A stretch of DNA of 64,000 nucleotides from a virus. A program made the position numbers and the translations under genes. The stretch is taken from UHGV virus genome UHGV-0054069; one strand, given 5' to 3'. Numbering within the stretch: position 1 is the stretch's first letter; each line of letters opens with the position of its first letter. A model generated the notes under the pieces. It did not search any database and was not told where the DNA came from. It saw only the letters and a program-made list of their open reading frames with translations. This document shows positions 3,165-56,464 of this stretch, in pieces.

Positions 3165-3401
3165 ATGTTAACAACAATCTATCTCATGCTTGCTGTATGC
3201 TCTGGGGCTAATGATTGCCATTATGGGGTTTTAGAATCCTTTGAAGGCACTAAACAAAATGCGGAAGAGGCTTGTAATATTGCTAGACAAGATTACCCCA
3301 AATCATCTAAAATGGGTTGCTACGTCTTACAAGGTGAAGACGAAAACACAGAATACTACGAAAATATTAATGAAGATGAATTTTTAGAGATTTACAAATA
3401 A
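3165..3401 (+). CDS. hypothetical small protein with N-terminal hydrophobic/signal-like segment
   Basis: ORF; AGAGG RBS; N-terminus MLTTIYLMLAVCSGA. Confidence 0.5.
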   Translation: MLTTIYLMLAVCSGANDCHYGVLESFEGTKQNAEEACNIARQDYPKSSKMGCYVLQGEDENTEYYENINEDEFLEIYK

Positions 3402-3406
3402 AGTAC

Positions 3407-3436
3407 TTTACATGGGGCTTAAAAGCTTGATACCAT
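3407..3436 (+). promoter_or_regulatory. sigma70-like promoter (TTTACA-N18-TACCAT)
   Basis: weaker -10; followed by conserved leader. Confidence 0.35.
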
Positions 3437-3477
3437 AAGCCCCAGATAAAGAGCTTTCCTAAACTGGAGTTTTCACA

Positions 3478-4013: not shown

Positions 4014-4141
4014 TCAATGACTTACAAAATTCTTTGAAAAAACTGTTGACAATACCCCTTGACATTGATAGATTTGTTCGAGGGGGTTTATCTAAAAGGG
4101 ATTCACTTAAAAGATTCTTTATAGATAAGCGTAAAAAGTAC

Positions 4142-4946: not shown

Positions 4947-5003
4947 ACTTATCAACGGGGAGGGAATGACCTTCCCCAACAATCCTAAACTGGAGACTAG
5001 AAA

Positions 5004-5267
5004 ATGAATAATCAAGAAATCACTATCCTGTTACAAATCGGTACTGACAAAGAAGATATCCAACTTTGCAAACGTATTGAAAGTGATTGGTTCAACGGTG
5101 AAATCATCGCAGAATCTTATGAAGTAGTCGGATTCATGAATGGTGAAGTTGTAAGCCATTTCGGTTTAACTAAATCTGAAGCCGTTGCAAAGTATGACGT
5201 TTTATCTTGTGAGATTCTTACAAAATACAATGAAAAAAGACTTGCAACTTATGCAGCAATGAATTAA
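5004..5267 (+). CDS. hypothetical early protein
   Basis: ORF with conserved leader (4984-4995). Confidence 0.55.
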   Translation: MNNQEITILLQIGTDKEDIQLCKRIESDWFNGEIIAESYEVVGFMNGEVVSHFGLTKSEAVAKYDVLSCEILTKYNEKRLATYAAMN

Positions 5268-5270
5268 TAT
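5242..5270 (+). promoter_or_regulatory. sigma70-like promoter (TTGCAA-N17-TAATAT)
   Basis: hexamers read directly. Confidence 0.45.
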
Positions 5271-5333
5271 TACTTTCAACGGGGAGGGAGACTTCCCCAC
5301 TAAAACAAAATTCCTAAACTGGAGAATCTGAAA

Positions 5334-5585
5334 ATGGCTACTATCCGCGCAACTGTTAACAATTTTGGCTTCCATGTATTAGATGTTAAATTTGATATGG
5401 TTGGAACTGGTGATGCTTTCGGTATGATTGAAATGTGTCTGAAGGCAACTATTCAGGACTACAATCCATCGGAAACATTCTGGAAAGAAACTAAACAGGA
5501 AGTCTTAAAGGATGGTGTATCTTCTTACTATTGGGGTGATTCTCTTATCACGCTTTACTACCAAAAATTTGGTGTGATTAACTAA
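5334..5585 (+). CDS. hypothetical early protein
   Basis: ORF with conserved leader (5313-5324). Confidence 0.55.
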   Translation: MATIRATVNNFGFHVLDVKFDMVGTGDAFGMIEMCLKATIQDYNPSETFWKETKQEVLKDGVSSYYWGDSLITLYYQKFGVIN

Positions 5586-5626
5586 CAAGTCGCCGCAACG
5601 GGGCAAATAGCCCCAGACACCTTTAC

Positions 5627-5650
5627 AGCCCCTTAGATGGGGCTTTTTTA
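5627..5650 (+). terminator. rho-independent terminator
   Basis: AGCCCC-TTAGAT-GGGGCT followed by TTTTTT; ends the plus-strand early array. Confidence 0.7.
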
Positions 5651-5997
5651 CGTCTATGAGATAGAACTCTATACAGAACCCTTCCTAGAATCTTACCAGA
5701 CCTTTAGAACAATAACTCTATAGCTTACTCTATATCATCTTATCAAGTCAACTACAATATAAGCCCATAACCCGAAAGGGAAGGGCAATCCCTAAAACGC
5801 TCTATAACGCTCTATACGGGCTTATCATCTCATCTTAAGCAATCATATTAACCCACTCTAAAAAGCCCTTTATAGAGCTTTCTAGAGCCTTAAAAGAATC
5901 TTATAAGGGTATAAGCTTTATTATCTCGTTAGTATCTTGTGAATGGTTAAACAGGGGCTTGAAAGTTACTTAATAATGTGTTATGGGGAACTAAAAA

Positions 5998-6063
5998 GAG
6001 CTTAAAAGTAACGTAAAAGATGCTTAAAAGTAACGTAAAAGATGCTTAAAAGTAACGTAAAAG
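5998..6063. repeat. 3 tandem copies of 22-bp unit CTTAAAAGTAACGTAAAAGATG
   Basis: copies at 6001-6022, 6023-6044, 6045-6063 (third truncated). Confidence 0.85.
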
Positions 6064-6119
6064 TTAGCCCCCTTTACATTCTCTTAACAAAATCTTAACA
6101 AATGCAACATAGTTATGCT

Positions 6120-6600
6120 TATTAGAGACTTGTTAGCCCCTTGTTAAATCCTTGTTAGAGGTATGTTAAGAGCTTGTTAGACTCTTTGAAGTCCCTGTAT
6201 AAGCCCCTAGAAAGCCCTATAAAGAGCTATACAGGTAGTTGGGGTGTAGTTACTAGGGAGAACCTTAGAAGAGGCTATACAGAGCTACAGAGAGCTTTTA
6301 AGAGGGCTTTATAGAGAATCACTAAGAAGGGAAGGGAACTATAGACCAAGAGATAGTGACCATGTTAATAGTTTGTTAAAAAGGTTTAGAACTTGTTAGC
6401 ATCTTGTTAATTATCTTAACAAAATAACTCTTAAGATTTAACTATTTAGCAACTTATAAGCAACTTGTTAGACTCTTGTTAGTAATGTTACAGACTTGTT
6501 AAGCTCTTGTTAGTTCTGTTAAGAGACTGTTAAGGACTTTGAAGAGATGTTAAGAGCTTGAGAGAGTTGTTAAGAGATTGTTAATGATATTTTAAGATTT
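6120..6600. repeat. iteron-like arrays of CTTGTTAG / GTTAAG motifs at roughly helical spacing
   Basis: over 20 copies at about 10-12 bp spacing in two blocks (6130-6180, 6400-6600); no ORFs. Confidence 0.7.
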
Positions 6601-7189
6601 TGCAAAGGGGATGTTACAGGGCTGTTAAGGGCTACTAAGCAGATATACACCCTTTGTAGATATTTTTCAGATACTCCCAAGAACCTAAAAAGTGACCTAC
6701 CTAGTCTATTTTATAAAAATTTTATAGAACTGAATAACTATCTATACACTATCTTCTATAAAACAGGTAATAACAGGCTTATAAGATATCTTGTTAGTAA
6801 CGTGTTAGACCTTGTAGGATAAGCCTTTACAGGGAATACCTGTTTAGTGTTATATAACAGTCTATATAGAGGCTTAGTAATACCTAGTGATTCTGCTATA
6901 TAGGGTACTATCATTTACCTAGAGATTAAGATGGGTATAGGGGCTTCTAAGGGGGTAGAAAGAGGTTAGGAAGGTGATTGTATAGGGTTGATTAATGGTA
7001 GGCTTAGAAGGCTTTATAGAGGGATATATAGAGAGCACTATTTAGGGACTAAGATGCTATATAGATACTATATAATACTATATAGAGATGATGCTTAGAG
7101 AGGGTGTTTAGAAGGGTATAGATATTTTATCACATATCATGGTGACCCAAGATGAACGGAGTGAATCCCAAATTTTATAAAAATTAAAA

Positions 7190-7232
7190 AGCCCCTATGA
7201 GATAGATTCTATCGAATCCATTTTAAGGGGCT
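7190..7232 (-). terminator. candidate terminator (long-loop hairpin + T-run on minus strand)
   Basis: AGCCCCT..AGGGGCT with nested GATAGA/TCTATC hairpin; A-run on plus strand; just past stop of gene 7242..7913. Confidence 0.4.
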
Positions 7233-7241
7233 AAATATTAA

Positions 7242-7913
7242 TCAACACAAATTCTCTATGATTACTTGAATAGCTTGTTTTGTGGTATGGAAGAAGTGTG
7301 TAAAACCAGTACTGCTCTCTGTAACTTGAATCATAATCTGTGAACCCTTAACCGGATAAGTTTGTAAGCGGTAATGATTACCATTGATTACAATAGAGCC
7401 ACCTTCACCAATATGATTCAAATGTGTGATATCAACAAATTCTTCTTTGCCTGTGACCCTGATACAAACACCTTTGTTCACTCGTGAAGGGTTAATATCT
7501 TCCATAAATAGCATTATCTGTCCACCAAGAGACATCATAGAGACTTCTTTACGGTTCTGCTGTTTAACATACATCTCAAGTTTCTTCAAAGTATCTTCAT
7601 AGAACGGATAAGACTTCTTGACAAAGATACCTTCAAGTGGCTCTTTACCTGAGTCTTCTCGTTCCATCTTAAGTCGATTAACAAGTAATTCTAAAGACCA
7701 CTTCTCACTTTCATCAAGATATGTATTGATATCATCTAGACTCAGTACCAGATACTTTCTTTCAAGTTCAAACTTTTTCATCTCTATCAAATCCTTAAAA
7801 CATTTCTTAGTAATTGCTTCCCATTCTTCGGAGTTCTTCCGCTTCCTCTTCAGATGGGGAACCATATCTGTTAAGTTCTTCCAACTCTTCTTCAGTAGGT
7901 GTACCATAATCAC
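7242..7913 (-). CDS. hypothetical protein
   Basis: long ORF in minus-strand block. Confidence 0.55.
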   Translation of the reverse strand: MIMVHLLKKSWKNLTDMVPHLKRKRKNSEEWEAITKKCFKDLIEMKKFELERKYLVLSLDDINTYLDESEKWSLELLVNRLKMEREDSGKEPLEGIFVKKSYPFYEDTLKKLEMYVKQQNRKEVSMMSLGGQIMLFMEDINPSRVNKGVCIRVTGKEEFVDITHLNHIGEGGSIVINGNHYRLQTYPVKGSQIMIQVTESSTGFTHFFHTTKQAIQVIIENLC

Positions 7914-23033: not shown

Positions 23034-24650
23034 TTGCAGAGGTGCTTAATGGACTTAAATGTTATTAAGCAGAAGCGAGTGGAAGATGTAAGGAAAGTCC
23101 TAGCAGGTGAGTTGGGGCTTTCTGAAGAAGTAAAAGATATTATCAAATCCTTTGGTAAAGACCCCTCTAAATTCCTTCCAACTCAAATTCTGACTTTATT
23201 AAGGTACACCCCAGACCAAGTAAGACTCATCTTTAAATTGATGACTGACAAGAACTATGTAGCTCCACAGCCTGGCTCTCAAGAAGTATTCTTGAATACC
23301 AATGCTGACTTGGTGTTATATGGTGGTGCTGCTGGTGCTGGTAAGACTGCTGCCCTTTTAATGGACTCTTTGAGATTCATTGATGACCCTAACTATAACG
23401 CTGTATATTTCCGTCGAAATACTACACAGTTACAAGGTGGTTTATGGCCAGCAGCTAAAAAGCTATTTGGTAAGTTTGGTGGAATCCCACACGAACAGAA
23501 AATGACTATTACGTTCCCTTCAGGAGCGACTATTAAGTTTACTTATTTGGAACTTGAAAAACACTCAGAAGGTCACCAAGGTATCGAATACTCAGCTATT
23601 TACTTCGACGAAGGTACACACTTCTCGGCTTCACAGATTTCATATCTTCAGACACGTTTACGTTCTGGTGCTGAAGGTGACTCATATATGAAGATTTCCA
23701 TGAACCCAGATAGAGACCACTTTATTTACGATTGGGTAGAACCATTCCTAGATGAAGAAGGTTATCCAGACCCGTCTAAATGCGGTAGGATTCGTTGGTA
23801 TGTTATGAGTGATGGTGTAATGGTTTCTGATTGGGACAAGAATAAGATTCTTGAAATGTTCCCTCTAGAGATTCCTCAAACATATACCTTTATTTCTGGT
23901 ACGATTGATGACAACCCAATTCTTGATTTCTTAGAACCTAAGTATCGTGGTAAATTGGAAAACAATACACCAGTTAACGTTGCTCGTCTTCGTTTTGGTA
24001 ACTGGAAAGCTCGTGCAGAAGGTTCAAACTATTGGCAAAGACAATGGTGTGAGATTGTTGATAGTGTTCCAGCAGACGTATTTGATGTTCGTGCTTGGGA
24101 CTTAGCAGCAACATTACCCTCAGAAGTTAACCCTAATCCTGACTGGACAGCAGGTGTGAAAATGGGTAAATCTAAAAAAGATGGTTGCTATTATGTAATT
24201 AACGTAGTAAGATTTAGAGATAGACCTTCTGGAGTTGAAACACAAATTAATATGACTGCTGAAGGTGATGGTAAACGTACTGGTATTTTTATCCCACAAG
24301 ACCCAGGCGCTGCTGGTAAATCCTACGCAACATCTCTTATTAGAAAACTTGCTGAGAAAGGCTATAGAGCAAGAGCTAAACCTACCAATAAAGATAAAGT
24401 TACCCGTTTTGCGGGTTTCTCTGCTGCTTCAGAAGCTGGTCTTGTTAAAATTGTTAGAGGCTCTTGGAATGAAGCTTATTTCCAAGAACTAGAAGGTTTT
24501 TGTGGTGATGGTCGTACTAAGGATGACCAAGTGGATGCTACCAGTGATGCTTTCAACAGTCTTAATGAAGTTAAACTATTCAAGCCACCTTCAATGGGTA
24601 CTCATACAGATATTGTAAGAAGTAATCCATACGAAGGGCTGAGATTCTAA
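23034..24650 (+). CDS. terL: terminase large subunit
   Basis: Walker A LYGGAAGAGKT; size and position before portal; start may be ATG 23049. Confidence 0.8.
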   Translation: MQRCLMDLNVIKQKRVEDVRKVLAGELGLSEEVKDIIKSFGKDPSKFLPTQILTLLRYTPDQVRLIFKLMTDKNYVAPQPGSQEVFLNTNADLVLYGGAAGAGKTAALLMDSLRFIDDPNYNAVYFRRNTTQLQGGLWPAAKKLFGKFGGIPHEQKMTITFPSGATIKFTYLELEKHSEGHQGIEYSAIYFDEGTHFSASQISYLQTRLRSGAEGDSYMKISMNPDRDHFIYDWVEPFLDEEGYPDPSKCGRIRWYVMSDGVMVSDWDKNKILEMFPLEIPQTYTFISGTIDDNPILDFLEPKYRGKLENNTPVNVARLRFGNWKARAEGSNYWQRQWCEIVDSVPADVFDVRAWDLAATLPSEVNPNPDWTAGVKMGKSKKDGCYYVINVVRFRDRPSGVETQINMTAEGDGKRTGIFIPQDPGAAGKSYATSLIRKLAEKGYRARAKPTNKDKVTRFAGFSAASEAGLVKIVRGSWNEAYFQELEGFCGDGRTKDDQVDATSDAFNSLNEVKLFKPPSMGTHTDIVRSNPYEGLRF

Positions 24651-24662
24651 TAGGTAGAAAGA

Positions 24663-26129
24663 ATGGCAGATATCACAGAAACACAAGAAAGCCTTCCTCC
24701 ATTCAGAATGGGTGAGGTTGGGAGTCTTGGCCTTAAAGTTCGTTCAGGAAGAATCTATGAAGAACCTAGACAGGCTTTAAGATTCCCAGAAAGTATTAAG
24801 ACTTTCCAACTTATGATGCGAGACCCAGCAGTAGCTGCATCTGTGAACATTATTAAAATGTTTGTCAGAAAGGTTAACTGGAGATTCGTACCACCGAAGG
24901 GTAAAGAGAAAGATGCGAAGCTAATTGAAAGAGCAGAGTTCTTCAACTCATTAATGAATGACATGGAGCATGATTGGGCTGACTTTATTAACTCTGTTAT
25001 GTCATTCTGTACTTATGGCTTCTGCGTAAATGAAAAGGTTTATAAGAAACGTCAAGGTAAGAAAGGTAAATATCCTTCCAAGTACAATGATGGTTTAATT
25101 GGTTGGGCTAAGTTACCAATCAGAAATCAGTCAACACTGGATAAGTGGTATTTTGACGCTGACTACAGAAAAGTTACTGGAGTTAGACAGAACCTGAGAA
25201 ATGTCTCTTATATTACTGGTGCAATTAATCTTGCAGAACAACCATTGACAAGAAAACTCCCTAGAAGTAAATTCTTGCTATTCAAGTACGATGATGAATA
25301 TGGAAACCCAGAGGGACGTTCACCACTCCTTAATGCTTATGTACCTTGGAAATATAAGGTTCAGATTGAAGAGTATGAAGCAGTTGGTGTATCAAGAGAC
25401 TTAGTGGGTATGCCTAAGATTGGTCTTCCACCAGATTATCTGGATGAGAATGCAGAACCTGAAAAGAAAGCTTTCGTGAAGTATTGCAAAGATATCGTGA
25501 ATGATTTAATTGCAAATGATAGAGCAGGTATTATCTGGCCTAGATTTATCGACCCAGAAACTAAAGAAGATATCTTTGAGTTCTCATTAGTTTCTAGACA
25601 GGGTGCTAAGGCTTATGATACAGGTTCAATCATTGACAGATATTCTAAGCAGATTATGATGGCCTTTATGTCAGATGTTCTTGCTATGGGACAATCAAAA
25701 TATGGTTCATTCTCTTTGGCAGACTCTAAGACAAGCTTGTTAGCAATGTCTGTAGATATTCTTCTGAAGCAAATCAAGAACGTTATTAACCGTGACCTAG
25801 TAGCACAGACTTACGCTCTGAATATGTGGGATGACGAAGAACACGTTGAGATTGTTTATGATGATATTGAAACTCCAGACCTAGAAGCTATTGGTGCTTA
25901 TATTCAGAAGACCGTTGCAGTTGGGGCTATGGAAGTTGATAAGCCATTGTCTGATAAGTTAAGAGAACATATTGGTTTACCACCTGCTGATTCATCTAAA
26001 CCTGTATCTGAAGAATTATCTCCTAACACTCAAAGTCGTTCTGGAGATGGTTATAAGACTGCTGGAGAGGGAACTGCTAAGACTCCTTCAGCAAAAGACC
26101 CAAGTACAGCTAACAAGGCAAACAAATAA
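24663..26129 (+). CDS. portal protein (putative)
   Basis: 488 aa directly after TerL and before prohead protease. Confidence 0.55.
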   Translation: MADITETQESLPPFRMGEVGSLGLKVRSGRIYEEPRQALRFPESIKTFQLMMRDPAVAASVNIIKMFVRKVNWRFVPPKGKEKDAKLIERAEFFNSLMNDMEHDWADFINSVMSFCTYGFCVNEKVYKKRQGKKGKYPSKYNDGLIGWAKLPIRNQSTLDKWYFDADYRKVTGVRQNLRNVSYITGAINLAEQPLTRKLPRSKFLLFKYDDEYGNPEGRSPLLNAYVPWKYKVQIEEYEAVGVSRDLVGMPKIGLPPDYLDENAEPEKKAFVKYCKDIVNDLIANDRAGIIWPRFIDPETKEDIFEFSLVSRQGAKAYDTGSIIDRYSKQIMMAFMSDVLAMGQSKYGSFSLADSKTSLLAMSVDILLKQIKNVINRDLVAQTYALNMWDDEEHVEIVYDDIETPDLEAIGAYIQKTVAVGAMEVDKPLSDKLREHIGLPPADSSKPVSEELSPNTQSRSGDGYKTAGEGTAKTPSAKDPSTANKANK

Positions 26130-56266: not shown

Positions 56267-56295
56267 TTGACAAAGCACTTGACAAGGTGTTAATC
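56267..56295 (+). promoter_or_regulatory. candidate promoter with tandem TTGACA boxes
   Basis: TTGACA at 56267 and 56279; weak -10. Confidence 0.35.
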
Positions 56296-56464
56296 TTTGC
56301 GGAGTGGGTTTTATCTTAATAGACTCTCTTTACAGGTTAACTATACAGATTCTTTAAAACCCTTAAAAGATTTTTAATAGCCTTTTAAAAGCTTTAAAGT
56401 TATACGTATAGAATACGTAAAGATAAGAGATTAAAATCTTTATAGAAACTTAGTAGAGGCAATT

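Follow-up and report, generated by a model that had tools for sequence, protein, structure and literature searches.

UHGV virus genome UHGV-0054069, a stretch of 64,000 nt read on one strand from 5′ to 3′ (hereafter the window), contains a short tandem repeat array at positions 5992–6063. By homology with related phages, this array stops 3 nt (TTA) before the base that forms the left physical end of the virion DNA in those relatives. We put at about one half (roughly 0.5) the probability that the array is an accessory, slippage-prone platform for protein binding or DNA bending, which would serve terminus cutting and packaging. The window represents a Felix O1-like myovirus (Ounavirinae, Mooglevirus-like), and the array lies in a 1.65-kb tract free of open reading frames (ORFs) at 5586–7241, referred to below as the spacer. 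No description of the array or the spacer in Felix O1-like phages was found in the searchable literature; some GenBank records merely carry the tag 'repeat_region' at the array locus.

Anatomy of the array

Direct reading of the plus strand showed a perfect 22-bp unit present in 2.86 copies at 6001–6063, namely CTTAAAAGTAACGTAAAAGATG at 6001–6022 and again at 6023–6044, followed by the partial copy CTTAAAAGTAACGTAAAAG at 6045–6063. The original prediction, made from the letters of the window, had proposed a threefold 22-bp tandem repeat beginning at 5998. The repeat was recovered, but this start is 3 nt too early, and TGCTTAAAAG is present in copies 2 and 3 only, copy 1 reading GAGCTTAAAAG. 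Tandem Repeats Finder delimited the array at 5994–6063 (period 22, 3.2 copies, 97% matches, score 133) and also reported an overlapping array of period 11 at 6003–6064.

Each 22-bp unit consists of two 11-bp sub-units, so that seven in-phase cores are found across 5992–6063. On the plus strand these cores are TAAAAAG at 5992 and TAAAAG at 6003, 6014, 6025, 6036, 6047, and 6058, all in the same 11-nt register. The first of the seven units is TAAAAAGAGCT; in the others, TAAAAG is followed by 5-nt spacers which alternate between TAACG and ATGCT. The pattern TAAAAG-N5-TAAAAG occurs five times in the window, every time within the array, against 0.06 occurrences expected. The array was confirmed as a real, non-random feature, and with its head-to-tail units and a copy number that differs among relatives at the same locus, it is a variable-number tandem repeat.

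Adjacency to the terminus of related phages

Short direct terminal repeats are known in Felix O1-like phages, with a length of 581 bp in Pr103Blw (PMC8303462). The PhageTerm results for four Philippine Felixounaviruses (PMC11737134) and for Erwinia Kolesnikviruses (PMC11984208) agree with such repeats. For Felix O1 itself short terminal repeats were inferred, and its genome paper lists other repeats (PMC3185647). How the ends of these phages are formed has not been described, the searchable papers reporting only that short terminal repeats exist.

Several GenBank records of relatives begin or end inside the 1.65-kb tract, and three of them hold both copies of the repeat. The exact terminal repeats in these three are 581 bp (I14.1), 580 bp (E9), and 591 bp (ZX4221) long; each begins with GCCCCCTTAACATT and ends with GGGCTACC (GTTAAGGGCTACC), and their two ends align to positions 6067 and 6636 of the window. 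From this homology we infer a direct terminal repeat of 570 bp in the window (6067–6636, plus strand), which would run from GCCCCCTTTACATT... to ...GTTAAGGGCTACT. The last array unit would be joined to the left terminus by a TTA linker at 6064–6066 (TTA or CTA in relatives), with the putative cut falling between 6066 and 6067. By homology only, the array is thus adjacent to a physical end of virion DNA, as a terminus site should be; this adjacency was not visible to the original prediction. Since only 3 nt separate the array from the left boundary of the repeat, in replicating concatemers it would lie directly outside the site of the left-end cut or nick; in the virion, it would adjoin the right-hand repeat copy on the inner side.

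The left end is independently supported by Erwinia phage vEam_PM_27, whose record (GenBank PP079184.1, positions 1–8) opens with the Illumina adapter tail TCCGATCT fused to GCCACTTTTACATTTCG (GCCACTTTTACATT), the homologue of the window from 6067 onward. The adapter tail is a contaminant of the record, yet it marks a true DNA end. Only the left end of this record was used, as its right end stops 21 nt before the right boundary is reached in the homologous sequence. The first bases of the putative repeat form a nearly invariant terminus-proximal block, GCCCCCTTTACATTCTCTTAACAAAATCTTAACAA (6067–6102, plus strand), which contains TCTTAACAA twice, 11 bp apart, and whose counterpart in vEam_PM_27 is recognisable as GCCACTTTTACATTTCGTTAACAAC.

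The right boundary of the repeat (6636|6637) is crossed by a block at 6528–6649 on the plus strand, GGGCTACT|AAGCAGATATACA. No other part of the spacer still gives a DNA alignment with Erwinia (Kolesnikvirus) and Hafnia phages, and this block may hold the most conserved end-processing signal.

Two further records were tried as terminus evidence and rejected. The ends of Citrobacter phage KMM2 (same genus; GenBank OP902295.1) proved to be a 64-nt overlap left by assembly within the terminal repeat and not physical ends, and the record of Salmonella phage BPS15Q2, which lacks a terminal repeat, begins 14 nt to the left of the boundary. In this phage group, many assemblies seem to break in the repeat-rich, double-coverage region, and many GenBank records were opened arbitrarily. 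The record of vB_EcoM_I14.1 (GenBank PP892526.1) bears the taxonomy Tequintavirus (Demerecviridae), but the phage is a Felixounavirus by sequence and in its own paper.

Unit number and conservation among relatives

We compared 30 distinct arrays at the homologous position, taken from GenBank and IMG/VR genomes. The number of in-phase units ranged from about 2 to about 20, with 2 in HY02, 3 in Michonne and SUSP1, 5 in Sf17, 7 in this window, 14 in KEP2, and 20 in FG1m. Units in the 11-bp phase were present in every Felixounavirus, Mooglevirus, and Suspvirus genome examined, and the insertions and deletions among them were of whole units. Sf17, which is 96.5% identical, has one 22-mer fewer than the window, and Michonne has two fewer; judged from this comparison, the three perfect 22-mers of the window are a recent expansion. 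Variation of this kind offers a ready marker for strain typing and is a likely cause of the assembly breaks.

The end of the array behaves differently from its variable interior. In all examined genomes of the three genera, the array ends with ACGTAAA(A/T)(G/A)(T/C)TA, directly followed by GCCCCC. The proximal unit together with the junction, AAAGT(A/T)ACGTAAA(A/T)(G/A)(T/C)TA|GCCCCCTT, is invariant or nearly so, and the same holds for the first ~45 nt of the terminal repeat. As regards conservation of a possible terminase site, the array is found in every genome examined from these three genera, with an invariant last unit, and it is absent beside the homologous Kolesnikvirus terminus.

Across 180 units (42 distinct), positions 10, 1, and 3–6 are conserved (C, T, A, A, A, and G), either T or G stands at position 11, and positions 2 and 7–9 are free. 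What repeats is thus an 8-bp core, C-K-T-W-A-A-A-G, with a 3-bp spacer. A conserved core with a free spacer suggests a site that is repeated at each helical turn, rather than mere recent duplication.

These data bear directly on whether the array has any function. It could be a neutral, slippage-prone repeat that lies next to the terminus only because both are in a large non-coding tract. Such a repeat would give the wide spread of unit number in close relatives (about 2 to about 20) and the recent expansion of the window relative to Sf17 and Michonne; other short periodic repeats abound in the 1.65-kb spacer, the Kolesnikviruses keep the terminus without the array, and the register is maintained automatically when whole units are gained or lost. 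For this last reason, the 11-bp register was rejected as evidence of function. Neutrality does not, however, account for the retention of at least two to three units in every genome examined from the three genera, nor for the invariance of the junction-proximal unit, nor for core positions that are conserved while the spacer varies across the 42 distinct units. Furthermore, the identical 8-bp core and its 11-bp spacing are conserved at other loci. We consider a functionless array unlikely, though it is the strongest of the rival readings.

Predicted curvature and neighbouring phased arrays

The array contains seven AAAA(A) tracts spaced by exactly 11 bp, which places them on one face of the helix, as is characteristic of the phased A-tracts that give intrinsic curvature. 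A dinucleotide wedge model gave ~87 degrees over 80 bp centred on 6020, against 27 ± 15 degrees window-wide; only two segments in the 64 kb were predicted to curve more, which puts the array at the 99.9th percentile of the window. The predicted bend of ~87 degrees is to be read as relative. The two strongest bends were predicted at 8945 (~100 degrees per 80 bp) and 53170 (~90 degrees), the former coinciding with a short tandem repeat (8946–8974) in an intergenic gap.

Phased sequences were also found inside the putative terminal repeat. Besides the two copies of TCTTAACAA with an 11-bp period (6082–6102, plus strand), a second 11-bp-period array, formed by 5–6 copies of CTTGTTAG/CTTGTTAA, lies just inside the repeat at 6117–6181 on the plus strand. 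With 11-bp arrays on each side, the putative cut site is bracketed by two different phased arrays.

Proposed role of the array

We propose that a packaging or end-processing protein sits on the array and positions a nuclease at the conserved TTA|GCCCCCTT(T/A)ACATT junction. Since there is one core per helical turn, every core would face the same side of the DNA, which is itself predicted to be curved by its phased A-tracts. The protein that binds the array could be the small terminase subunit, for which the DUF5681 protein encoded at 15483–15854 is the best positional candidate. Copy number would drift by replication slippage because, in this proposal, only the junction-proximal units matter. 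The array, taken together with the different 11-bp arrays inside the repeat, recalls pacL and pacR around a pac cut.

The large terminase subunit (Terminase_6N and Terminase_6C domains) is encoded at 23034–24650 on the plus strand and the portal at 24663–26129, while no small terminase is annotated in the window. The DUF5681 protein (123 aa; 15483–15854, plus strand) is the product of the first gene of a late-looking plus-strand operon. In a distant, unrelated metagenomic phage, the gene of a DUF5681 homologue lies directly upstream of the large-terminase gene and overlaps its start, the place classically occupied by a small terminase, and marine Felix O1-like relatives have the same layout as the window. 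This suggests that DUF5681 may be an unrecognised small-terminase family. The assignment is positional only, since gene order in distant homologues is its sole support and structure was uninformative. A sequence search of PDB with the protein returned no terminase. Its AlphaFold model was mediocre, with a predicted local distance difference test score (pLDDT) of 67, and showed a basic N-terminal arm and a helical hairpin; a Foldseek search of PDB with this model gave no informative fold match.

Several observations weigh against the proposed role. The terminus of the window is placed by homology, at 77–80% identity to the records with proven repeats, and a single laboratory supplied two of the three records that hold both repeat copies, the ends there having been derived with PhageTerm and not by biochemistry. 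In the Erwinia Kolesnikviruses the terminus sequence is retained, yet no TAAAAG array adjoins it; their TTCTAAG arrays, also with an 11-bp period, lie >100 nt from the terminus. The array is therefore clade-specific and not an essential determinant of cutting. The wide variation in copy number implies that most units are dispensable, and the constant 11-bp register, which whole-unit slippage would also produce, is not independent evidence of function. The candidacy of the DUF5681 protein derives from gene order in a distant homologue and is accompanied by a model of pLDDT 67 without an informative fold match. Finally, pairs of the same core in transcript leaders (see below) resemble the array, so the binding factor, if any, may not necessarily be a packaging protein.

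Recurrence of the core outside the array

Relatives conserve the 8-mer CTTAAAAG as the core of their array units. It has 21 matches in the window against 5.1 ± 2.2 expected, a number reached in 0 of 100 shuffles, and of the 840 8-mers that share its composition it is the most frequent. Of these 21 sites, 13 are located in the ORF-free 11% of the window (p = 4e-8); when the big spacer is excluded, the corresponding figure is 8 of 16 (p = 3e-5). The original prediction had stated that the core recurs in the divergent promoter regions near 15380–15450 and 56350–56400, and this proved correct, with CTTAAAAG at 15381, 15443, 15452 (minus strand), and 56362. The surroundings of 15381–15452 and of 56362 are divergent intergenic regions with TTGACA promoters.

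The core also recurs as a dimer with the spacing of the array. The 11-bp-spaced pattern CTTAAAAG-N3-CTTWWWAG has nine matches in the window, those of the array included, against 0.07 expected. One dimer, CTTAAAAGAATCTTATAAG (5889–5907, plus strand), consists of two units 11 bp apart and precedes the array by ~95 nt; all 21 aligned genomes carry it unchanged, while their flanks vary. Another, CTTAAAAGATTCTTTATAG (4106–4124, plus strand), is situated 60 nt downstream of a tandem TTGACA-N7-TTGACA promoter and is conserved in relatives. The sequence CTTAAAAGATTTTTAATAGCCTTTTAAAAGCTTTAAAG (56362–56399, plus strand), a dimer with one mismatch, is in the leader that follows tandem TTGACA promoters. 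In the DUF5681 leader (15381–15459, plus strand) there are the near-dimer CTTAAAAGACTCTTCTAAAAAG and a perfect palindrome, CTTAAAAG-C-CTTTTAAG, at 15443–15459, 24 nt before the start codon. The recurrence of an 11-bp-phased element is thus real, and the shared motif makes one binding factor for the array and the leader dimers plausible.

The tandem TTGACA-N7-TTGACA arrangement is unusual and is common to three promoters, at 4046–4065, 15331–15350, and 56267–56286; units of the CTTAAAAG type follow each of them in the leader, 50–95 nt later. Elsewhere the contexts of CTTAAAAG are heterogeneous, including a hairpin (3418) and places beside ribosome-binding sites (8868, 33642, and 52384). The region 3400–3460 is the homologue of the 57-bp intergenic direct repeat of Felix O1 (CTTTACATGGGGCTTAAAAG...TAAGCCCCAGATAAAGAGCTTT) and forms a GGGGCTTA/TAAGCCCC hairpin with one CTTAAAAG inside.

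A regulatory or nucleoid-type protein, of phage or host origin, might thus bind CKTWAAAG units that are one helical turn apart. The same protein would act on the leader dimers of σ70-driven operons, for example by shutting off or modulating early transcription, and the array would be its high-capacity site or sink. This generalises the shared binding site of the original prediction and would be compatible with a packaging role. It agrees with the enrichment and intergenic location of CTTAAAAG, with the dimers at 4106, 5889, and 56362 and the near-dimer at 15381, with the conservation in relatives of the equivalents of the 5889 and 4106 dimers, and with the palindrome in the DUF5681 leader. However, no candidate regulator was identified, and the AT-rich composition of intergenic DNA adds to the motif enrichment. 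The shared-site idea holds for an enriched, largely non-coding core with conserved 11-bp dimers, but the array itself is not at a promoter. Likewise, the check that had been suggested, motif enrichment with positions relative to promoters, gave enrichment (21 vs 5.1) but no fixed position for an activator: the copies in promoter regions are 50, 60, and 95 nt downstream of −35 hexamers, that is, in transcript leaders at variable distances and not at −30. A regulator would also leave unexplained why the large array is placed exactly at the boundary of the terminal repeat. We regard this explanation as rather improbable.

The two roles could also be joined in one phage protein. The candidate is the putative small terminase DUF5681, whose own leader holds the CTTAAAAG palindrome. 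Through the expandable array it would flag the left edge of the terminal repeat for the terminase, and through the conserved leader dimers it would throttle the σ70-driven operons, its own included. This is a long shot. If true, such a dual-role CKTWAAAG-binding protein would link the early-to-late switch with the beginning of packaging.

Comparison with known systems

The SRL and SRR short repeat arrays that flank the terminal repeat of T7 were reportedly described by Dunn and Studier. A role of these arrays in concatemer processing or packaging is presumed but not firmly established. The T7 genome (NC_001604) has arrays of YCTAAAG heptamers on both sides of its 160-bp terminal repeat. As in T7, short direct terminal repeats are present here and arrays with an A-rich core (CCTAAAG, CTTAAAG, and CATAAAG in T7) adjoin the repeat in non-coding DNA. 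The T7 heptamers are, however, irregularly spaced (about 11–18 bp) and stand on both sides of the repeat, whereas the units here are strictly 11 bp and head to tail, within 3 nt of the left boundary, with a copy number that varies about ten-fold between relatives. Moreover, the phages are unrelated: in the present one, a myovirus, the fold of the large terminase is T4-type and the portal Mu-like, and host RNA polymerase alone is presumed to act. The array belongs with the short repeat arrays at phage termini, and the T7 concatemer junction is its closest known architectural counterpart.

In the SPP1 pac region (pacL-pacC-pacR), repeat boxes serve as docking sites of the small terminase G1P, and pacL is bent. 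The putative terminus here is similar in that a cut site lies between two different sets of short boxes, with phased A-tracts and curvature on one flank. SPP1 differs in being a headful packager whose pac is cut once per concatemer, while the present phage would have exact ends with a terminal repeat, unrelated motifs, and a binding that is only proposed. P1 pac has 4 + 3 hexamers, and lambda cosB has R sites and a bend made by integration host factor (IHF); DNA bending is part of the mechanism. These systems also have short repeated recognition elements beside a terminase cut, but their repeats are fixed in number and essential, and P1 uses Dam methylation. In contrast, the copy number of the present array is free, and one genus keeps the terminus without it.

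Felix O1-like phages are widely used for typing, detection, and biocontrol of Salmonella and E. coli. Termini at TTA|GCCCCC and GGGCTAC(C/T)|AAGCAG would provide a concrete packaging region for genome engineering, in-vitro rebooting, and the correct opening of assemblies. The choice and duplication of ends in phages with exact-end terminal repeats has been well studied only in T7 and T3, so a second, unrelated system would be useful for comparison, particularly one with a regularly phased array beside the cut that varies naturally from about 2 to 20 units. The general interest is modest, and the practical use is for a widely used phage group.

Genomic setting

The 1.65-kb tract around the repeat has 92–94% identity with Shigella phage KPS64 and with Citrobacter phages Michonne and Mordin (Ounavirinae, Mooglevirus), and 76–80% identity to ~200 Felixounavirus records. 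At 5586–7241 it is the second-largest ORF-free tract in the window, behind the tRNA cluster. The genes flanking it encode small proteins of unknown function. An intrinsic terminator at 5627–5644 (plus strand) closes the plus-strand block of small genes, whose last ORF ends at 5585, and another at 7185–7232 (minus strand; AGCCCCT...AGGGGCT + TTTTT) closes the minus-strand block, whose last ORF is at 7242–7913. Both terminators are also annotated in Michonne. The array thus lies between converging transcription units, each ended by a terminator, and not at a promoter. A σ70 promoter scan of 5400–7400 yielded four sites against 6.5 expected, hence no enrichment, and no promoter-like site within 6001–6063, the nearest one ending at 5977. 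An Rfam scan of 5400–7400 found no covariance-model match at E ≤ 1. A known RNA family or a promoter role was accordingly rejected for the array.

The T4 MotA box, (a/t)(a/t)(a/t)TGCTT(t/c)A, is centred at −30, with a σ70 −10 element 11–13 bp downstream. The original prediction had likened the TGCTT part of the repeat to its core, as for a middle promoter with TGCTT at −30 for a MotA-type activator. The likeness is confined to this pentamer in the window phage and its closest relatives: ATGCTTAAA, present in two of the three 22-mers, matches the MotA-box core loosely. In other relatives TGCTT is replaced by GGGCT, TAGCT, AGGCT, or TGGTT. Unlike a MotA box, it is not at −30 of any promoter; there is no −10-like element at the right distance within the array region scanned, and no downstream gene, as the next 1.2 kb is ORF-free and is closed by an oppositely oriented terminator. 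A MotA-like promoter is effectively refuted.

The setting also bears on replication. Iteron origins such as lambda ori, P1, and pSC101 have direct repeats of ~20 bp that are helically phased and intrinsically bent, and to which an initiator binds. The array would fit such an origin in its 22-bp length, direct orientation, helical phasing, and predicted curvature, and in its place within the largest non-coding tract apart from the tRNA cluster. Its real unit, however, is 11 bp, and a number that varies ~ten-fold between relatives is unusual for iterons. The flanking small genes include no adjacent initiator gene, the reading of the region gave no DnaA boxes, and composition does not mark an unwinding element, the GC content of 5001–7000 being 0.34–0.37, as in neighbouring DNA. 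Nor does the position between converging terminators, without a promoter, favour it. A replication origin is highly improbable at this site.

The spacer as a whole is a mosaic of motif arrays with a 10–11-bp period throughout. It includes CTCTATA at 5716–5816, CKTWAAAG at 5889–6063, TGTTAAG at 6363–6636 (~20 copies, occupying the right half of the putative terminal repeat), and CTATATAG at 6855–7090. Elsewhere in the window, 24 tRNA genes are clustered at 17514–22600. This cluster contains a 272-bp tandem duplication at 20689–21244 (two copies, 76% identical), which comprises a tRNA 3′ end and a small ORF.

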